Shown here piece after piece: positions 3,434 through 23,734 of a stretch of DNA of 64,000 nucleotides. Each line of letters starts with the position of its first letter. The first letter of the stretch is position 1. The notes beneath the pieces are model-generated. The model saw nothing but the letters and a program-made list of their open reading frames with translations, ran no database searches and was not told the DNA's origin. This DNA is from Thermoflexales bacterium (GTDB taxonomy: Bacteria; Chloroflexota; Anaerolineae; B4-G1; DUEL01), in the NCBI GenBank assembly GCA_014360895.1, contig JACIWQ010000001.1, forward strand, positions 16,287-80,286, in the 5' to 3' direction. The position numbers and the translations under genes are program-made.

Positions 3434-3489
3434 GATGCGTGATGCGTGATGCGTGATACGTGATACGTGATGCGTGATACGTGATGCGG
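3434..3489. repeat. Tandem heptamer array (GATGCGT/GATACGT) x8 in the rplQ-truA spacer
   Basis: Eight contiguous 7-bp units directly upstream of the truA start codon. Spurious ORFs (SRITYHASRITYH) arise from it. Confidence 0.9.
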
Positions 3490-3498
3490 GATTTGTGG

Positions 3499-3900
3499 TT
3501 AGACCAGTTCCAGCACCACCATGGGGGCCGCGTCGCCCTTGCGGGGGCCCAGTTTGGTGATGCGGGTGTACCCGCCGGGCCGGTTCTGGTAGCGCGGCGC
3601 AATCTCATCAAAGAGTTTCTTGACCAGGTCCACCCGTTCCCCCTCGGGGGTGACGACCCAGCGGTTCATGCGGGCCGCCGCCAGACGGCGGGCATGGACG
3701 CCGTAGGCCGGGTCCTTCGCCGCCAGCCCCCGCTTGGCCAGGGTGATGAGTTTCTCCGCATGCCCGCGAATGGCCTCGGCCTTCGCTTCCGTCGTCTCTA
3801 TCCGCTCGTGGTAAATGAACGCCGAAACCAGGTTCCGAAACAGGGCCCGGCGATGGCCGCTGGAACGATTCAGTTTCTTTCCTGCCACGCGATGTCGCAT
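3499..3900 (-). CDS. rplQ: 50S ribosomal protein L17
   Basis: L17 sequence ([23 protein letters not shown]...). Confidence 0.95.
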
Positions 3901-3901
3901 C

Positions 3902-4909
3902 TTACAACTCTCCCGATTCGTCTAATTCTTCTTCCTTCTCCGGTGGCTGAGGCAGATAGGCCAGGTATCCGGCCGCGCCCAGTTTTTCCATTAACTCCGC
4001 CATAGACTTATCGCCGAAGTTGCGGATGGTCCGGACGGCCTCGTCGCCCCGGCTGAGCACTTCCAGGACTTCTCCGACCCGCGAGATGCCCGCCCGCTTC
4101 AGGGCATTGTAGACGCGCGCGGTCAGCCCCAGAGTCTCTATCGGGATCTCGTAGACCCGGGCGGGGATTCCCCGCTCCTCCTCCCCCACCAACTCCGGCT
4201 CCTCCGTGATGCCGGCGATGAGGCGGAAGTGAGTGACCAGAATCCGGGCCGCCTCCTTGAGGGCCTCCAGCGGGCCGATGCGGCCGTCGGTCCAGATCTC
4301 CATGTTCAGCCGGTCGTAGTTGGTCCGCTGGGCGACCCGCGCCCGCTCCACGTTGAACGCGACCCGCCGGACGGGACTGAACAGGGCGTCCACCGGAAGT
4401 TCGCCGATGGAGCGGCGCTCCCGCTCTTCGGCGGGCGAATACCCCCGTCCCCGCTCCACGGTAAACTCCATTTCCACTTTCGCCTCGGGCGAATCGGTCG
4501 TGAAGAGATAGAGGTCCGGGTTGAGAATCTCTATCTCCGGCGGCGCCTGGATGTCCCCGGCAGTCACCACGCCGTCCCCCCGGACGGAGAGGGTCATGCG
4601 CGTCGGGCCGTCGCCGTCCAACTTCAGGCGCAGTTGCTTCACCTGGAGGAGGATTTGCATCACGTCCTCCCGCACGTGCGGGATGGTCGCAAATTCGTGC
4701 GGGACGTCGTAGATTCGGACAGAGGTGACGGCCGCCCCGGGAAGGGAGGAGAGCAGGACCCGCCGCAGGGCGTTCCCCAGCGTGATCCCATATCCGCTCT
4801 CCAGCGGGCCGATGACAAACCGGCCGTACTGCTGGGTCAGCACCTCTTTTTCAATTTTCGGCAAAACCGGTGCGGCAAATCGGGGTTCCCTCTGTGCAGT
4901 CATCGCCAC
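3902..4909 (-). CDS. rpoA: DNA-directed RNA polymerase subunit alpha
   Basis: 335 aa with alpha NTD/CTD motifs. Canonical alpha-operon position. Confidence 0.95.
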
Positions 4910-5548
4910 CTACCGAGAGTAGTACTCCACGACCAGTTGCTCGTTGATCGGGATGTCCACATGCTCCCGCCTGGGCATTCCCAGGACCCGGGCGGAGAGG
5001 TCCGCCGCGTCCAGGGAGAGCCAATCGGGAACCCTCATCTCGTCCAGCATCTCGGCGCGTTCCTGGAAATACGGCCGCCGGCGGCTCCCCTCCCGCACGG
5101 CAATCCGGTCACCGGGCCGGACCAGATAGGACGGGATGGTAACCCGTCGGCCGTTGACGGTGAAGTGGCCATGCTGAACCAGTTGGCGGGCCTGGGCGCG
5201 CGAGTCGGCGAAGCCCAGCCGATAGACCACGTTATCCAGGCGGCGCTCCAGCAGGATGAGCAGATTCTCGCCGGTCAGGCCGGGCGTCCGCAGCGCCTCC
5301 CGGAAGTAGCGGCGAAACTGCCGCTCCAAGATGCCGTAAACCCGCTTGACTTTCTGCTTTTCCCGCAACTGGCGGAAGTAGTCCGTGGGCTGTCCCCGCC
5401 GGAAACGGGCAATCTGTCCGTGCTGTCCGGGCGGGTAATCCCGGCGCTCCAGGGCGCACTTGGGCGACATGCAGCGCGCGCCCTTCAGGAACAACTTCTG
5501 TCCTTCGCGACGACACAACCGACAAACCGGGCCTGTGTATCTGGCCAT
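4910..5548 (-). CDS. rpsD: 30S ribosomal protein S4 (zinc-finger form)
   Basis: [26 protein letters not shown]... S4 with N-terminal Cys cluster. Confidence 0.95.
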
Positions 5549-5581
5549 ACCCTGACTCCGTACTCCTTATTCCGTGAATGC

Positions 5582-5977
5582 TTACACCCGACGCTTCTTC
5601 GGCGGCCGGCAACCGTTGTGCGGGATGGGCGTTACATCGGTGATAGAGCGGATTTTCAGCCCCGCCGCCTGCAGGGAGCGGATGGCCGCTTCCCGCCCCG
5701 GGCCCGGCCCCTTGACCAGCACATCCACCTCGGTCACCCCGTTATCCAGGGCGTCTTTGGCCGCGCGCTGGGCCGCCTGACGGGCCGCGAAGGGCGTGCT
5801 CTTGCGCGAACCCTTGAAGCCCACCAGCCCCGCACTCGCCCAGTTGATGACGTTCCCCTGAGGGTCGGTGATGGTGATGATGGTATTGTTGAAACTGGCG
5901 TGAATGTGGGCCACGCCGCGCGGGATCGCGCGGCGCACCCGCTGGGTAACTCTCCGGCGTCTTTGAGCACGAGACAT
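5582..5977 (-). CDS. rpsK: 30S ribosomal protein S11
   Basis: S11 core motif ([18 protein letters not shown]). Confidence 0.95.
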
Positions 5978-21148: not shown

Positions 21149-21191
21149 TGTCTACCCCCTACTCCACACTCCGTACTGCGCACTCCGTTCC

Positions 21192-21890
21192 CTACCCTTT
21201 GCGCAATTCCTTCGTCTTCCGGGCCTGTTTGATCATCACCAGGCTCCCCCGGTGGCCCGGGACGGCGCCGCGCACCGCCAGCAGGTTCCGCTCCGGGTCC
21301 ACCATGACCACTTCCAGGTTCTGGACGGTCACCCGGACGCCACCCATGCGGCCGGGCATCCGCAGCCCCTTCAGCACCCGGCCCGGCGTCGTGGTGGCGC
21401 CGATGGAGCCGTGACGGCGCTCCCGGTCCGATTGACCGTGGGTCTTGGGCTGACGGTTGAAACCATGGCGCTTGATGCCACCGGCAAACCCGCGCCCTTT
21501 GGACGTGCCCACCACGTCCACCCGGTCGCCGACCTGGAAGACATCCACGGTGATTTTCTCGCCTTCAGCGGGCGCCTCTTCCGGCTTCACGCGGAACTCC
21601 CGCAGACGGCGCAGCGGACCGGGTATCCCCTTCAGCACCCGTCGACGCGGGTGGGCAGAGTCCGTTTTCAGCAGGCCCAGGTGGCCCAACTGCCCGCGCG
21701 TCAGCCGAGAAGGCTTCACCGGCTCAAAGCCCAACTGGACCGCGCTGTAGCCATCCCGCTCCGGCGTTTTGACCTGGGTGACCCAACAGGGACCGGCCTC
21801 AATCACCGTGACCGGAATCGCCTCTCCTTCGGCGGTAAACAACGTGGTCATTCCGACCTTTTTACCCAGAATTCCCTTCACGATACTCAC
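21192..21890 (-). CDS. rplC: 50S ribosomal protein L3
   Basis: Canonical L3. GTG start with a GGAGGA RBS. Confidence 0.95.
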   Translation of the reverse strand: MSIVKGILGKKVGMTTLFTAEGEAIPVTVIEAGPCWVTQVKTPERDGYSAVQLGFEPVKPSRLTRGQLGHLGLLKTDSAHPRRRVLKGIPGPLRRLREFRVKPEEAPAEGEKITVDVFQVGDRVDVVGTSKGRGFAGGIKRHGFNRQPKTHGQSDRERRHGSIGATTTPGRVLKGLRMPGRMGGVRVTVQNLEVVMVDPERNLLAVRGAVPGHRGSLVMIKQARKTKELRKG

Positions 21891-22040
21891 TCCTCCATGG
21901 GACTGTCAGCCCTGGGACAGGCTGCATCATCCCGGTGGTCAGGATGGAAGGAAACAAGAATACGAGGAGACAAGGATGCAAGGGGTAGAGGGGTGGCACG
22001 CTCCAACCCCTGCCTACTTGCCCACTTGTTTCCTTGTCTA

Positions 22041-22349
22041 CTACAACTTAATTTCTATGTCCACGCCTGCAGGCAGGTTGAGCCGCATCAGCGCATCTAT
22101 GGTCTTGTTATCCGGCTCCAGGACGTCTATCACCCGCTTGTGGGTCCGGATTTCAAAGTGCTCGTGGGAGTCCTTGTCAATGAAGGTGGACCGGCGCACG
22201 GTGAAGCGCTCTATCTGGGTCGGCAACGGGATAGGGCCGACCACGGTCGCTCCCGTGCGCTCGGCCGCCTCCACGATGCGCCGGGCGGACTCGTCCAACA
22301 CGCGATGATCGTACGCCTTCAGGCGGATACGGATTCTTTGCTTGGCCAT
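22041..22349 (-). CDS. rpsJ: 30S ribosomal protein S10
   Basis: Canonical S10. Confidence 0.95.
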
Positions 22350-22368
22350 GTCGGTAGGCTGGTGACGG

Positions 22369-23586
22369 TTAGTCCAGAATCTTGGTGATGACGCCAGCGC
22401 CGACGGTCAGCCCCCCCTCGCGGATGGCGAAGCGGGAGCCCTGCTCCACCGCGACCGGCTCAATCAGTTCCACCATCAGGTTGACGTCGTCGCCGGGCAT
22501 GACCATTTCCACGCCCTCGGGCAGGGTGATGGTCCCCGTCACGTCGGTGGTGCGGATGTAGAACTGCGGCCGGTAGCCGGAGAAGAAGGCCTTATGCCGC
22601 CCACCTTCCTCCTTGCGGAGGACGTAGACCTGGGCCTCAAACTTCCGGTGCGGCGTGATGGTCCCCGGTGCCGCGACGACCATGCCACGGGCCACCTCGT
22701 CCTTGCTCACACCGCGCAGGAGCAGGCCCGCGTTGTCGCCCGCCACCACCTTGTCCAGTTTCTTGCGGAACATCTCCATATCGGTGACGACGGTCTTGAT
22801 GGGCCGGTCGCGCAGGCCGACGATCTCCACCTCGCTCATCGGGACCAGCGTGCCCCGCTCCACCCGGCCGGTGACGACGGTGCCGCGTCCCTTAATGCTG
22901 AAGACGTCCTCAATGGGCATCAGGAACGGCTTATCCTCCTCGCGCACCGGGGTGGGGATGTACTCATCCACCACGCGCATCAGTTCCCAGATGCACTGGT
23001 ATTCCGGCGCGTTCGGGTCGGTGCTGGTGGACTGGAGGGCCTTCAGGGCGGAGCCGCGTACGATAGGCGTCTCGTCGCCCGGGAAGCCGTAGGAGTTGAG
23101 CAATTCCCGCAGTTCCAGTTCCACCAGTTCCAGCAGTTCCTCGTCCTCCATCAGGTCCACCTTGTTCAGGAAGACCACGATGGCCGGGACGTTCACCTGG
23201 CGGGCCAGGAGGACGTGCTCCCGGGTCTGGGGCATCGGGCCGTCCGCCGCGGAGACGACCAGGATGGCCCCATCCATCTGGGCCGCGCCAGTGATCATGT
23301 TCTTGATGTAGTCCCGGTGGCCGGGGCAGTCCACGTGGGCATAGTGCCGCTTCTCGGTCTCATACTCCACGTGGGCGATGGCGACGGTCAAGATTTTCGT
23401 CGCATCGCGGCGGAACATCTTCGCGTCCGCCTTGGCGACCTCGTCGTAGGACTTGTATTCCGCCATGCCCCGCATGGCCAGCACCTTGGTAATGGCCGCC
23501 GTCAGCGTGGTCTTGCCATGGTCAATATGCCCGATGGTCCCCACGTTTACGTGCGGCTTCTCACGGACGAACTTTGGCTTTGCCAT
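22369..23586 (-). CDS. tuf: Elongation factor Tu
   Basis: 405 aa with GHVDHGKTT G-domain. Confidence 0.97.
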
Positions 23587-23734
23587 CTCTCCTCTCTCCT
23601 TTCGTCAGATGATTCACTGATTCAGAGATTTGTCGCAACCGATTCACAGACAGGTGGGAAAATAGTTCGGGCCGGAGTTATCCCCCGGCCCGAACGGCAC
23701 TGGAGAACAACTCCCAACTGAGTGAGAGCGTCTT

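Follow-up and report, generated by a model that had tools for sequence, protein, structure and literature searches.

The 64,000-nucleotide (nt) stretch analysed here, hereafter the window, comes from a Thermoflexales bacterium (assembly GCA_014360895.1, contig JACIWQ010000001.1, positions 16,287 to 80,286). It carries a str/S10/spc/alpha ribosomal-protein (r-protein) cluster on its minus strand at ~1.8-27.6 kb, in the order rpsL, rpsG, fusA, tuf, rpsJ ... rplQ, truA, rplM, rpsI, and its GC content is ~63%. Spacers between these genes are filled with short tandem arrays, which are the subject of this report. An earlier reading, made by a model from the letters and open reading frames (ORFs) alone (the sequence-only reading), had listed such arrays and described their units as unrelated. 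Both points held: Tandem Repeats Finder (TRF) recovers the arrays, 10 of ~21 cluster spacers of at least 24 nt are periodic by a shuffle test, and the 7-8-nt sequences differ from spacer to spacer. Below, spacers are named by their upstream and downstream gene products (upstream>downstream), units are read on the mRNA (minus) strand, on which all the arrays described lie, and L-numbers denote loci or contigs of relatives.

The nearest loci found by a protein search with S5 (97-98% amino acid identity) are in metagenome-assembled genomes (MAGs) labelled Thermoflexus sp., Thermoflexales, Anaerolineae or Chloroflexota; the host of the window belongs to a Thermoflexus-like, heat-loving lineage of Chloroflexota. 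Looking up the exact S11 protein returned no match. Orthologous spacers were taken from the window and 14 related loci. Because the r-protein genes of relatives L002-L010 show ~92% nucleotide identity to the window, with third codon positions at ~80%, these relatives are congeneric with the window organism but separate species.

Several spacers contain direct arrays of units that do not resemble a Shine-Dalgarno (SD) sequence. Between L17 and truA (3433-3498), CACGCAT/CACGTAT is repeated 8.4 times at 3434-3492 (TRF period 7 bp, 90% matches; lag-7 match 0.83); this array reaches to 1-2 nt from the truA ATG, without an SD, and the same spacer in relatives is 11-25 nt long and has ATCACGAATCAG. 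The S13>S11 spacer (5978-6037) holds 5.3 copies of TTTCACG at 5992-6028, also found by TRF, followed by ACGGAGT as the SD and then by the ATG; its minimum free energy (MFE) of folding is 0 at 65 C. The unit in L24>L5 (15537-15609) is a 15-mer, CTTGCAT plus CTTGCCAT, present 3.8 times at 100% identity (TRF 15552-15608) and followed by a conserved AAAGGGTGAGTCCA-ATG. About 4.5 copies of an TGGTAAAC-like 8-mer occupy S5>L30 (12481-12548; TRF 12497-12532, period 8/16; lag-8 match 0.60). This array and a second significant 8-mer array in S10>L3 (~21946-22040) were absent from the sequence-only reading. The arrays also generate spurious ORFs.

Other spacers are built from units that contain or resemble an SD motif. 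The S11>S4 spacer (5549-5581) has the units ACGGAAT AAGGAGT ACGGAGT, and L18>S5 (13086-13118) reads ACGGAGT ACGGAGC ACGGACT ACGGAGG AGCGA ATG (TRF 13092-13118, 3.9 copies; lag-7 match 0.73). Two spacers start in a similar way: S19>L22 (19035-19061) reads taa CGGAAT ACGGCAT ACGGAGT ACGAATC atg (lag-7 match 0.70), and L2>S19 (19356-19382), which has orthologues in relatives, reads taa CGGAAT ACGCGGT ACGGAGT AGCGAAT atg (lag-7 match 0.60). The L3>L4 spacer (21149-21191) reads ACGGAGT GCGCAGT ACGGAGT GTGGAGT AGGGGGT AGACA atg (lag-7 match 0.61). In relatives, S19>L22 is 25-61 nt long, with about eight copies of (GGAGTAG)n in L013, and L3>L4 is 10-45 nt long.

Periodicity was tested in each of the ~21 cluster spacers of at least 24 nt by comparing the best of lags 4-10 with 2000 shuffles. 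Ten of these spacers are periodic at p<=0.0055: L17>truA, S13>S11, L18>S5, L14>L24, L24>L5, S19>L22 and the 8-mer arrays of S5>L30 and S10>L3 each reach p=0.0005, followed by L3>L4 (p=0.001) and L2>S19 (p=0.0055), with S11>S4 at p=0.027. In 8 of the 10 periodic r-protein spacers, matches peak at lag 7. When short non-coding segments are pooled, the excess of matches has z=7.4 at lag 7, z=4.4 at lag 8 and z=3.2 at lag 14. TRF assigns periods of 7, 8 and 15 (=7+8); arrays of the window have 3-8 copies and those of relatives as many as ~17. A strict scan finds one or two arrays per period at 7, 8, 14 and 15, against a mean of 0.00 in 40 block-wise dinucleotide shuffles; the arrays thus lie far above what composition predicts, in a test that covers the window and ~300 kb of related loci rather than a whole genome. 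Arrays no more frequent than composition predicts, which the sequence-only reading had named as a refuting outcome, were thus not what this test returned. One of the earlier claims did not survive this treatment: the looser GATTCAC repeats described in the tuf leader (23611-23647) are dispersed TGAATC words whose lag-7 match is 0.22 and whose best lag reaches p=0.066, and they form no significant tandem array.

Tandem repeats in a MAG might be produced by assembly or sequencing errors, or be low-complexity sequence that arose by chance. Longer arrays do often break short-read contigs: L210, L212, L213 and L001 begin or end in heptamer arrays, and MAG assemblies are fragmented at these places. 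L001 ends partway through the perfect 15-mer array, in the way typical of k-mer assemblers. The arrays are nevertheless reproduced base for base by independent assemblies. Two Logan contigs of run SRR11866724 agree with the window with 0 and 1 mismatches, and one contig, L202, runs through all of the (CACGYAT)8 array, with its variants arranged as they are in the window; seven assemblies of a related species, discussed below, agree in the same manner. Shuffles yield practically no arrays, and the 14 related MAGs, which come from different studies, have arrays at the same spacers. Because the Logan contigs reproduce the arrays and the related MAGs carry them at the same spacers, the arrays are not an assembly artefact, and the origin by misassembly that the sequence-only reading had named as fatal to its proposal is not borne out; as far as short-read data allow, we consider artefact or chance excluded.

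The position of the arrays within the spacers is narrowly defined. Over 53 arrays, the start lies at a median of 5 nt past the upstream stop codon (interquartile range (IQR) 1-13) and the end at a median of 12 nt ahead of the start codon (IQR 6-16). The final 12-20 nt before the start codon are conserved across species, and the array part is variable; conserved 3' modules include ACGGAGTNGNCT-ATG for rpsK, AAAGGGTGAGTCCA-ATG for rplE and GAGGTGAAGA-ATG for rplX. Junctions where genes overlap or lie 1-4 nt apart (L4>L23, L23>L2, L16>L29, L29>S17, S17>L14 and L30>L15) are invariant and free of arrays. Spacers that hold arrays and spacers that do not have equal mean lengths (~30-50 nt); in other words, spacers of ordinary length have been filled, not lengthened. 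Because the arrays are placed between the stop codon and the ribosome-binding module, and because no promoter-like or terminator-like site coincides with any of them, they are probably transcribed as part of polycistronic mRNA. This anatomy differs from that of repeats known to mediate phase variation, which lie within an ORF or between the -35 and -10 promoter elements, or determine the spacing of SD and start codon, so that expression is switched when copy number changes. Here, most arrays are upstream of a conserved ribosome-binding module, the distance from SD to ATG is independent of copy number, and the genes downstream are housekeeping genes. It also differs from CRISPR, where repeats of 23-50 nt alternate with unique spacers, as the units here are 7-8 nt long and contiguous.

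The SD-like units deserve separate consideration. With the operon on the minus strand, the units read ACGGAGU, CACGYAU and UUUCACG on the mRNA, and the earlier remark that ACGGAGU units overlap an SD-like GGAG was correct. Both ACGGAGT and GGAGTAA/GGAGTAG contain GGAG, and the latter pair also contains UAA/UAG. SD-type arrays begin at or overlap the upstream stop codon (e.g., taaGGAGTAGGGAGTAAGGAGTA...), and the working SD is the unit nearest to the start codon, with GGAG 5-9 nt from the ATG. In the clade, GGAG occurs in sense in 20 of 72 arrays, spread over at least seven different spacers, and CTCC in none of the 72. The L6>L18 spacer, which has no such units in the window, provides a graded series from taaGGAGCAAGGTatg in L007 up to seven GGAGTAR units in L004 and L013. 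This series supports an origin by reiteration, and the SD-type family looks like a reiterated "stop + SD" junction (UAR-GGAG), in which the extra SD motifs probably offer additional docking or retention sites for the 30S subunit. A scan of metagenomes for (GGAGTAN)4 returned many taxa (GC 35-70%) and varied contexts, with only two r-protein loci, both of distant relatives. SD-like heptamer arrays are therefore not specific to r-protein genes, according to metagenome hits that are unassigned to taxa and weakly informative. An "ACG" core shared among units (ACG in sense in 20 of 72 units) is suggestive of related families; it was dropped for want of a proper null.

Three spacers of the cluster contain inverted arrays, and here the suggestion that such arrays can form hairpins proved right. 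The L14>L24 spacer (15934-15991) has inverted (CGGAATA)2...(ACTCCGT)2(ATTTCGT), with CGGAATA and TATTCCG-like units opposed, followed by GAGGTGAAGA-ATG, and TRF reports 7-bp repeats in opposite orientation at 15957-15971 and 15976-15992. It folds with an MFE of -21.2 kcal/mol at 37 C (z=-3.5) and -9.1 kcal/mol at 65 C (z=-3.9), and its hairpin has z<=-1.4 in 6 of 10 genomes. In L22>S3 (18610-18677), inverted 8-mers (GAAGACAC / GTGTCTTC) form a hairpin with an MFE of -8.3 kcal/mol at 65 C (z=-2.9); periodicity of this spacer is weak in the window (p=0.10), and in L003 and L009 it has 2-3 units per arm, with z-scores of -4.1 and -7.1. The 5' part of S10>L3 (21946-22040) consists of inverted 8-mers (ACAAGGAA-like / TCCTTGT-like) in a long hairpin (TRF 21948-21983, period 8, 4.5 copies; lag-8 p=0.0005), and the whole spacer folds with z=-2.8 at 37 C and -3.6 at 65 C. 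In L014, a hairpin is found at the same place in S10>L3, made from another unit (TGACGTA/ACGTCAR). Overall, inverted arrays have z-scores of -2.5 to -4 at 65 C, as opposed to direct arrays, which fold with ~0 kcal/mol at 65 C. We rejected a structure-free linker as a selected property of the direct arrays: shuffles of equal composition are also at ~0 kcal/mol at 65 C (z +0.3 to +1.0).

Inverted arrays may plausibly serve as intercistronic elements for mRNA stability, processing or decoupling. It is a reasonable possibility, although we put it at somewhat below even, that the hairpins of S10>L3, L22>S3 and L14>L24 are functional mRNA elements maintained by selection; they could be REP-like barriers to 3' exonucleases, places where RNases process the mRNA, or translational decouplers. 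On this view, stems would simply grow by way of tandem units, which is compatible with the slippage explanation that we favor below. The hairpins are stable relative to shuffles at 65 C, they are kept in most, though not all, congeners, and the persistence of the S10>L3 hairpin in L014 through a change of unit points in the same direction. None of them resembles an intrinsic terminator: they are without a U-tract, and a terminator scan flagged only the hairpin downstream of rpsI (1740-1769) and no inverted array. Against selection, L004 and L013 have lost the L14>L24 hairpin or carry direct arrays in its place, folding gives it no support in L012 (z=+1.2), and L010 and L012-L014 lack the L22>S3 hairpin. 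Furthermore, template switching can make inverted arrays without selection, and compensatory changes cannot be scored because indels prevent alignment. Enterobacterial REP/BIME palindromes likewise form intercistronic hairpins in polycistronic mRNA without a terminator U-tract. The inverted arrays resemble them as stable intercistronic hairpins of this kind and differ in that there is no shared consensus: the stems are made from local 7-8-mers that differ per spacer. A search against Rfam 15 gave no match at the gathering score, and a search of 1600-27700 gave no meaningful match at E<=1.

Adjacent to the S10>L3 hairpin is an element of another kind. Upstream of rplC (21882-21945, minus strand), a stretch of ~60 nt is near-invariant in the window and six related genomes and reads GGGAUGAUGCRGCCUGUCCCAGGGCUGRCAGUCCC followed by the SD; its predicted fold is a nested hairpin, at -20 kcal/mol by alifold. 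This element, which shows neither compensatory changes nor a match in Rfam, could be an r-protein leader or an autoregulatory site for the L3-L4 genes.

Comparison of orthologous spacers reveals turnover of the arrays. (TTTCACG)n in S13>S11 has 2-9 copies among relatives, and (GGAGTAR)n upstream of rpsD has from 3 to ~16, so that the S11>S4 spacer reaches 119 nt in L013. The 15-mer of L24>L5 is present in ~3.8 perfect copies in the window, and because relatives have only about two diverged copies (29-46 nt), the array of the window is a recent expansion. Units are also replaced altogether: L006 has (AATCTGC)3 in S13>S11, where the others have (TTTCACG)n, and L007 has inverted (CAGATTG)n/(CAATCTG)n in L17>truA, where the window has (CACGYAT)8. 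The S5>L30 array is found in the window and in L002-L010 (47-78 nt), and because the two genes overlap by 4 nt in L011-L014, this spacer arose within the genus. At the finest scale, one related species is represented by seven assemblies from different samples, which share 99.95-100% identity over as much as 22.8 kb. The sole multi-base indel among them is one 7-bp unit (TACTCCA) in a heptamer array; the other arrays are identical, and three contigs of this set begin or end within arrays. The comparison of copy number between assemblies that the sequence-only reading had proposed thus yielded a difference of one unit, which looks like the length polymorphism expected from slipped-strand mispairing, albeit a single event.

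Arrays are not restricted to r-protein genes. Within the window, the spacer between a polyprenyl synthetase gene and a family-2 glycosyltransferase gene (both identified with Pfam) at 43141-43184 holds 4.6 copies of (CATTCTGT), found by TRF (lag-8 match 0.78, p=0.0005); its orthologue in relative L204 has 3.9 copies of a 15-mer (CGTCATTGGTCATTT). For a broader sample, 92 kb of non-ribosomal DNA with gene calls was obtained from four congeneric genomes, fetched via UvrA homologues. Of the 37 co-directional spacers in this sample that measure at least 24 nt, 13 show periodicity at lags 6-9, and no divergent region is periodic as a whole. TRF returned 46 rows in ~8.4 kb of intergenic DNA (34 of them with periods that are not a multiple of 3) and 51 rows in ~83 kb of coding DNA, where most are low-scoring or have a period that is a multiple of 3. 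Intergenic DNA is therefore ~9-fold denser in repeats of any period, and intergenic enrichment, which the sequence-only reading had proposed to check genome-wide, stands as far as these 92 kb reach. The ACGGAAT/ACGCAAT and GGAGTAR families recur in non-ribosomal DNA. The concentration in an essential operon that had been suggested is not borne out: the arrays are not special to this operon, and the cluster simply offers many spacers. The raw fraction of periodic spacers is higher in it (~56% of clade spacers of at least 24 nt vs ~32-35% elsewhere); we do not claim enrichment, as orthologous spacers are not independent.

Phylogenetic spread was scored over 81 r-protein loci. In the Thermoflexus-like clade, from 3 of 16 to 6 of 7 spacers are periodic per genome, mostly 40-85% and overwhelmingly at lag 7, although L011 and L012 have no periodic spacers. 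Periodic spacers are found patchily in other Chloroflexota, at 30-45% in L032, L037, L046, L047, L050, L059, L062 (Roseilinea), L063 and L067; many other Anaerolineae have none, and Verrucomicrobiota and other outgroups are at the false-positive level. This spread, combined with unchanged spacer length, would be the pattern that a lineage-specific mutational bias predicts.

We consider it likely that the arrays are the product of simple-sequence turnover driven by slippage and filtered by selection to the segment between the stop codon and the ribosome-binding site (RBS), a genome-wide intergenic phenomenon in a Thermoflexus-like lineage. Slipped-strand mispairing during replication would add or remove whole units of 7-8 nt (sometimes 7+8 = 15), and arrays would survive only where they are harmless, that is, in non-coding DNA from the upstream stop codon to the conserved ribosome-binding module of the next gene. 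Three sub-types may be distinguished by their possible effects. SD-type units (ACGGAGT / GGAGTAR), always in sense, probably act as extra 30S docking sites. Direct units, mostly G-poor (TTTCACG, CACGYAT, CTTGCAT, CATTCTGT), would give a linker RNA free of structure, as would a minority with more G than C, such as the 8-mer TGGTAAAC; most direct arrays are presumably close to neutral. Inverted arrays would form hairpins that probably provide intercistronic mRNA structure affecting stability, processing or decoupling.

Several observations sit uneasily with this explanation. On the one hand, some selection is suggested by the hairpin that L014 keeps despite a replaced unit, and by the persistence of the same unit at the same spacer in the face of ~20% silent-site divergence. 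On the other hand, local slippage by itself is insufficient for unit families that are shared by unlinked spacers and run in either orientation: TGGTAAAC has the sense orientation in S5>L30 and the antisense one in the adk>map spacers of L007 and L010, AATCTGC is found in four different spacers, and ACGGAAT/ACGCAAT in non-ribosomal loci. Nor does it account for the preference for 7-8 nt, or for the seeding of arrays that arose de novo at junctions where, in sister genomes, the genes overlap or are separated by 1 nt (S5>L30, rpoA>L17 and adk>map). The case for slippage consists of one single-unit polymorphism and differences between species. In addition, (CATTCGTG)n upstream of rplQ (rpoA>rplQ of L004 and L005) is the reverse complement of CACGAAT just 3' of rplQ (L002, L003 and L005). 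In L005, rplQ is bracketed by inverted copies, which hints at template switching or long-range pairing.

The placement of the arrays on the mRNA directly upstream of start codons, the strict sense orientation of the SD type and the persistence of arrays at the same spacers across species would also fit cis-acting sites of post-transcriptional control. A 7-nt periodic RNA would be read by a protein or by the ribosome, with a cold-shock protein, S1, CsrA or a HutP-like multimer as candidates, and copy number would set translation of the downstream gene. There is some precedent in Beggiatoaceae, where similar heptamers precede r-protein genes, and in Nostoc, where heptamers close to start codons have been described as affecting promoter reporters. 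We regard this as unlikely: a single genome has at least ten unrelated units, some families occur in both orientations, copy number varies several-fold among congeners with no constraint on length, and sister Anaerolineae have equally long spacers without periodicity. No candidate binding protein was identified. Also unlikely, in our estimation, is an evolvable rheostat of operon stoichiometry in a thermophile, in which slippage is used to tune translational coupling gene by gene. UAR-GGAG units could then be landing and retention pads for the 30S subunit, G-poor units could be linkers accessible to proteins or Rho, inverted arrays could be stability barriers, and unit families could spread between spacers by an unknown templated mechanism.

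Slippage-driven turnover has close counterparts in other bacteria. Heptamers are the commonest class of long simple sequence repeats (LSSR) from repeat-rich bacteria, for which polymerase slippage has been proposed (Mrazek, Guo & Shah 2007, as related in PMC4679880 and PMC4692102). As in LSSR (5-11-nt units), tandem 7-nt units predominate here, exceed what composition predicts, are overwhelmingly intergenic, are patchy across lineages and vary in length between close relatives. The defining features of the class are all found: head-to-tail units within 1-11 nt, abundance above composition, an intergenic, heptamer-dominated distribution and unit-wise polymorphism between strains (the single event above). 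The difference is that the arrays described here have been mapped to the stop-to-RBS part of operon spacers, and that 8-nt and 7+8-nt units are also common.

Likening the arrays to the STRR heptamers of cyanobacteria, as the sequence-only reading did, was apt. Its view that several unrelated heptamers in one genome are unusual was not, since the literature reports the same for Calothrix, Nostoc and Xanthomonas. Three heptamer families coexist in Calothrix, and intergenic heptamers of Xanthomonas and Nostoc are both direct and inverted and vary extensively in length between related species (PMC4692102). STRR (Calothrix, Nostoc, Anabaena) and the GGGGAYT/GGGAATC repeats of Nostoc and Xanthomonas (PMC4692102) share with the present arrays the several heptamer families per genome, the many intergenic sites, including sites within operons, the direct and inverted arrangements, and the variation of length and sequence between relatives at the same sites. 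They differ in unit sequence and in phylum: the closest loci to ours are from Chloroflexota, not from a (heterocystous) cyanobacterium, and our units do not form G-quadruplexes. In 364 kb of clade sequence, there are zero tandem copies of STRR1-3, GGGGAYT and GGGAATC. The STRR units reportedly set out by Mazel et al. in 1990 are CCCCAGT (STRR1), TTGGTCA (STRR2) and CAACAGT (STRR3). In Nostoc, heptamers located close to start codons or promoters reportedly influence the activity of promoter reporters.

In position, the closest parallel is the TAACTGA heptamer of Beggiatoaceae, which lies directly upstream of start codons, including those in r-protein operons, and for which a function in post-transcriptional regulation was proposed (MacGregor 2015, PMC4679880). 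In both cases, heptamers are found in sense a few nt upstream of start codons inside r-protein operons (for TAACTGA, upstream of L3, S4 and fusA), and the host is filamentous; the resemblance is one of position only. TAACTGA is one dominant unit that replaces the SD, whereas here there are many units, most of them upstream of a conserved SD, and one family is SD-like; the 364 kb of clade sequence contain three single occurrences of TAACTGA and zero tandem copies. Closer in taxonomy, Chloroflexus aurantiacus carries (GATAGRA)n satellites (Subirana & Messeguer 2019, PMC6749651). These are also dispersed, heptamer-derived tandem arrays in the same phylum, but with another unit and in another class, and no operon-level anatomy is described there; GATAGRA is not in tandem in the 364 kb. 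Because none of the known units is in tandem in this clade, the arrays belong with LSSR and are STRR-like, and they are not members of the STRR or TAACTGA families proper. We found no literature report of such arrays for Thermoflexus or Thermoflexales.

The heptamer phenomenon of cyanobacteria, Xanthomonas, Burkholderia and Beggiatoaceae is thus extended to thermophilic Chloroflexota. With more than ten congeneric genomes compared spacer by spacer in one operon, a comparative series is available that shows tolerated sites, the rate of turnover and stop + SD reiteration. Should copy number influence translation, this r-protein operon would lend itself to studying how spacer length and reiterated SD motifs set cistron ratios. 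On the practical side, arrays break short-read contigs and could serve as strain markers.

Apart from the arrays, the window contains several other features. Right after the rpsI stop codon, TRF finds 2.9 copies of a 10-nt repeat (1779-1806, minus strand), located 5' of the strong terminator-like hairpin at 1740-1769 (fold z=-5.3). Five small toxin-antitoxin-like cassettes interrupt the r-protein cluster on the minus strand (6720-7353, 8977-9972, 11298-11806, 17293-17737 and ~26400-27055): DUF4160/DUF2442 between map and rpmJ, MNT/HepT with a second MNT between secY and adk, DUF4258/DUF2283 between rplO and secY, PhdYeFM/ParE between rpsC and rplP, and DUF433/DUF5615 between rpsL and rpsG. Relatives have other, degraded or no cassettes at these junctions; for example, S3>L16 measures 660 nt in the window but is down to a 279-nt remnant in L002 and to 13 nt in L010. 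The idea that cassettes inserted at arrays was considered and rejected, as the cassette junctions are without arrays. In spc/alpha clusters, infA usually sits between map and rpmJ; in the window (6428-7353) it is not found there, and the DUF4160/DUF2442 pair is present instead. The map>rpsM gap of L014 contains rpmJ alone.

Between rplE and rpsN (type-Z S14) there is an extra ORF of 65 amino acids (MSVYVLTSEEQIVQEIRETPREYW...; 14746-14996, minus strand) with no Pfam match, and the distance from rplE to rpsH in relatives varies from 208 to ~1900 nt. Outside the cluster, 36896-41042 (minus strand) encodes two ORFs of 646 and 762 amino acids whose GC content (0.58) is lower, and whose codon usage is atypical, relative to the remainder of the window. 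They adjoin a DUF2142 membrane-protein gene and a glycosyltransferase cluster, and they may have been acquired horizontally.

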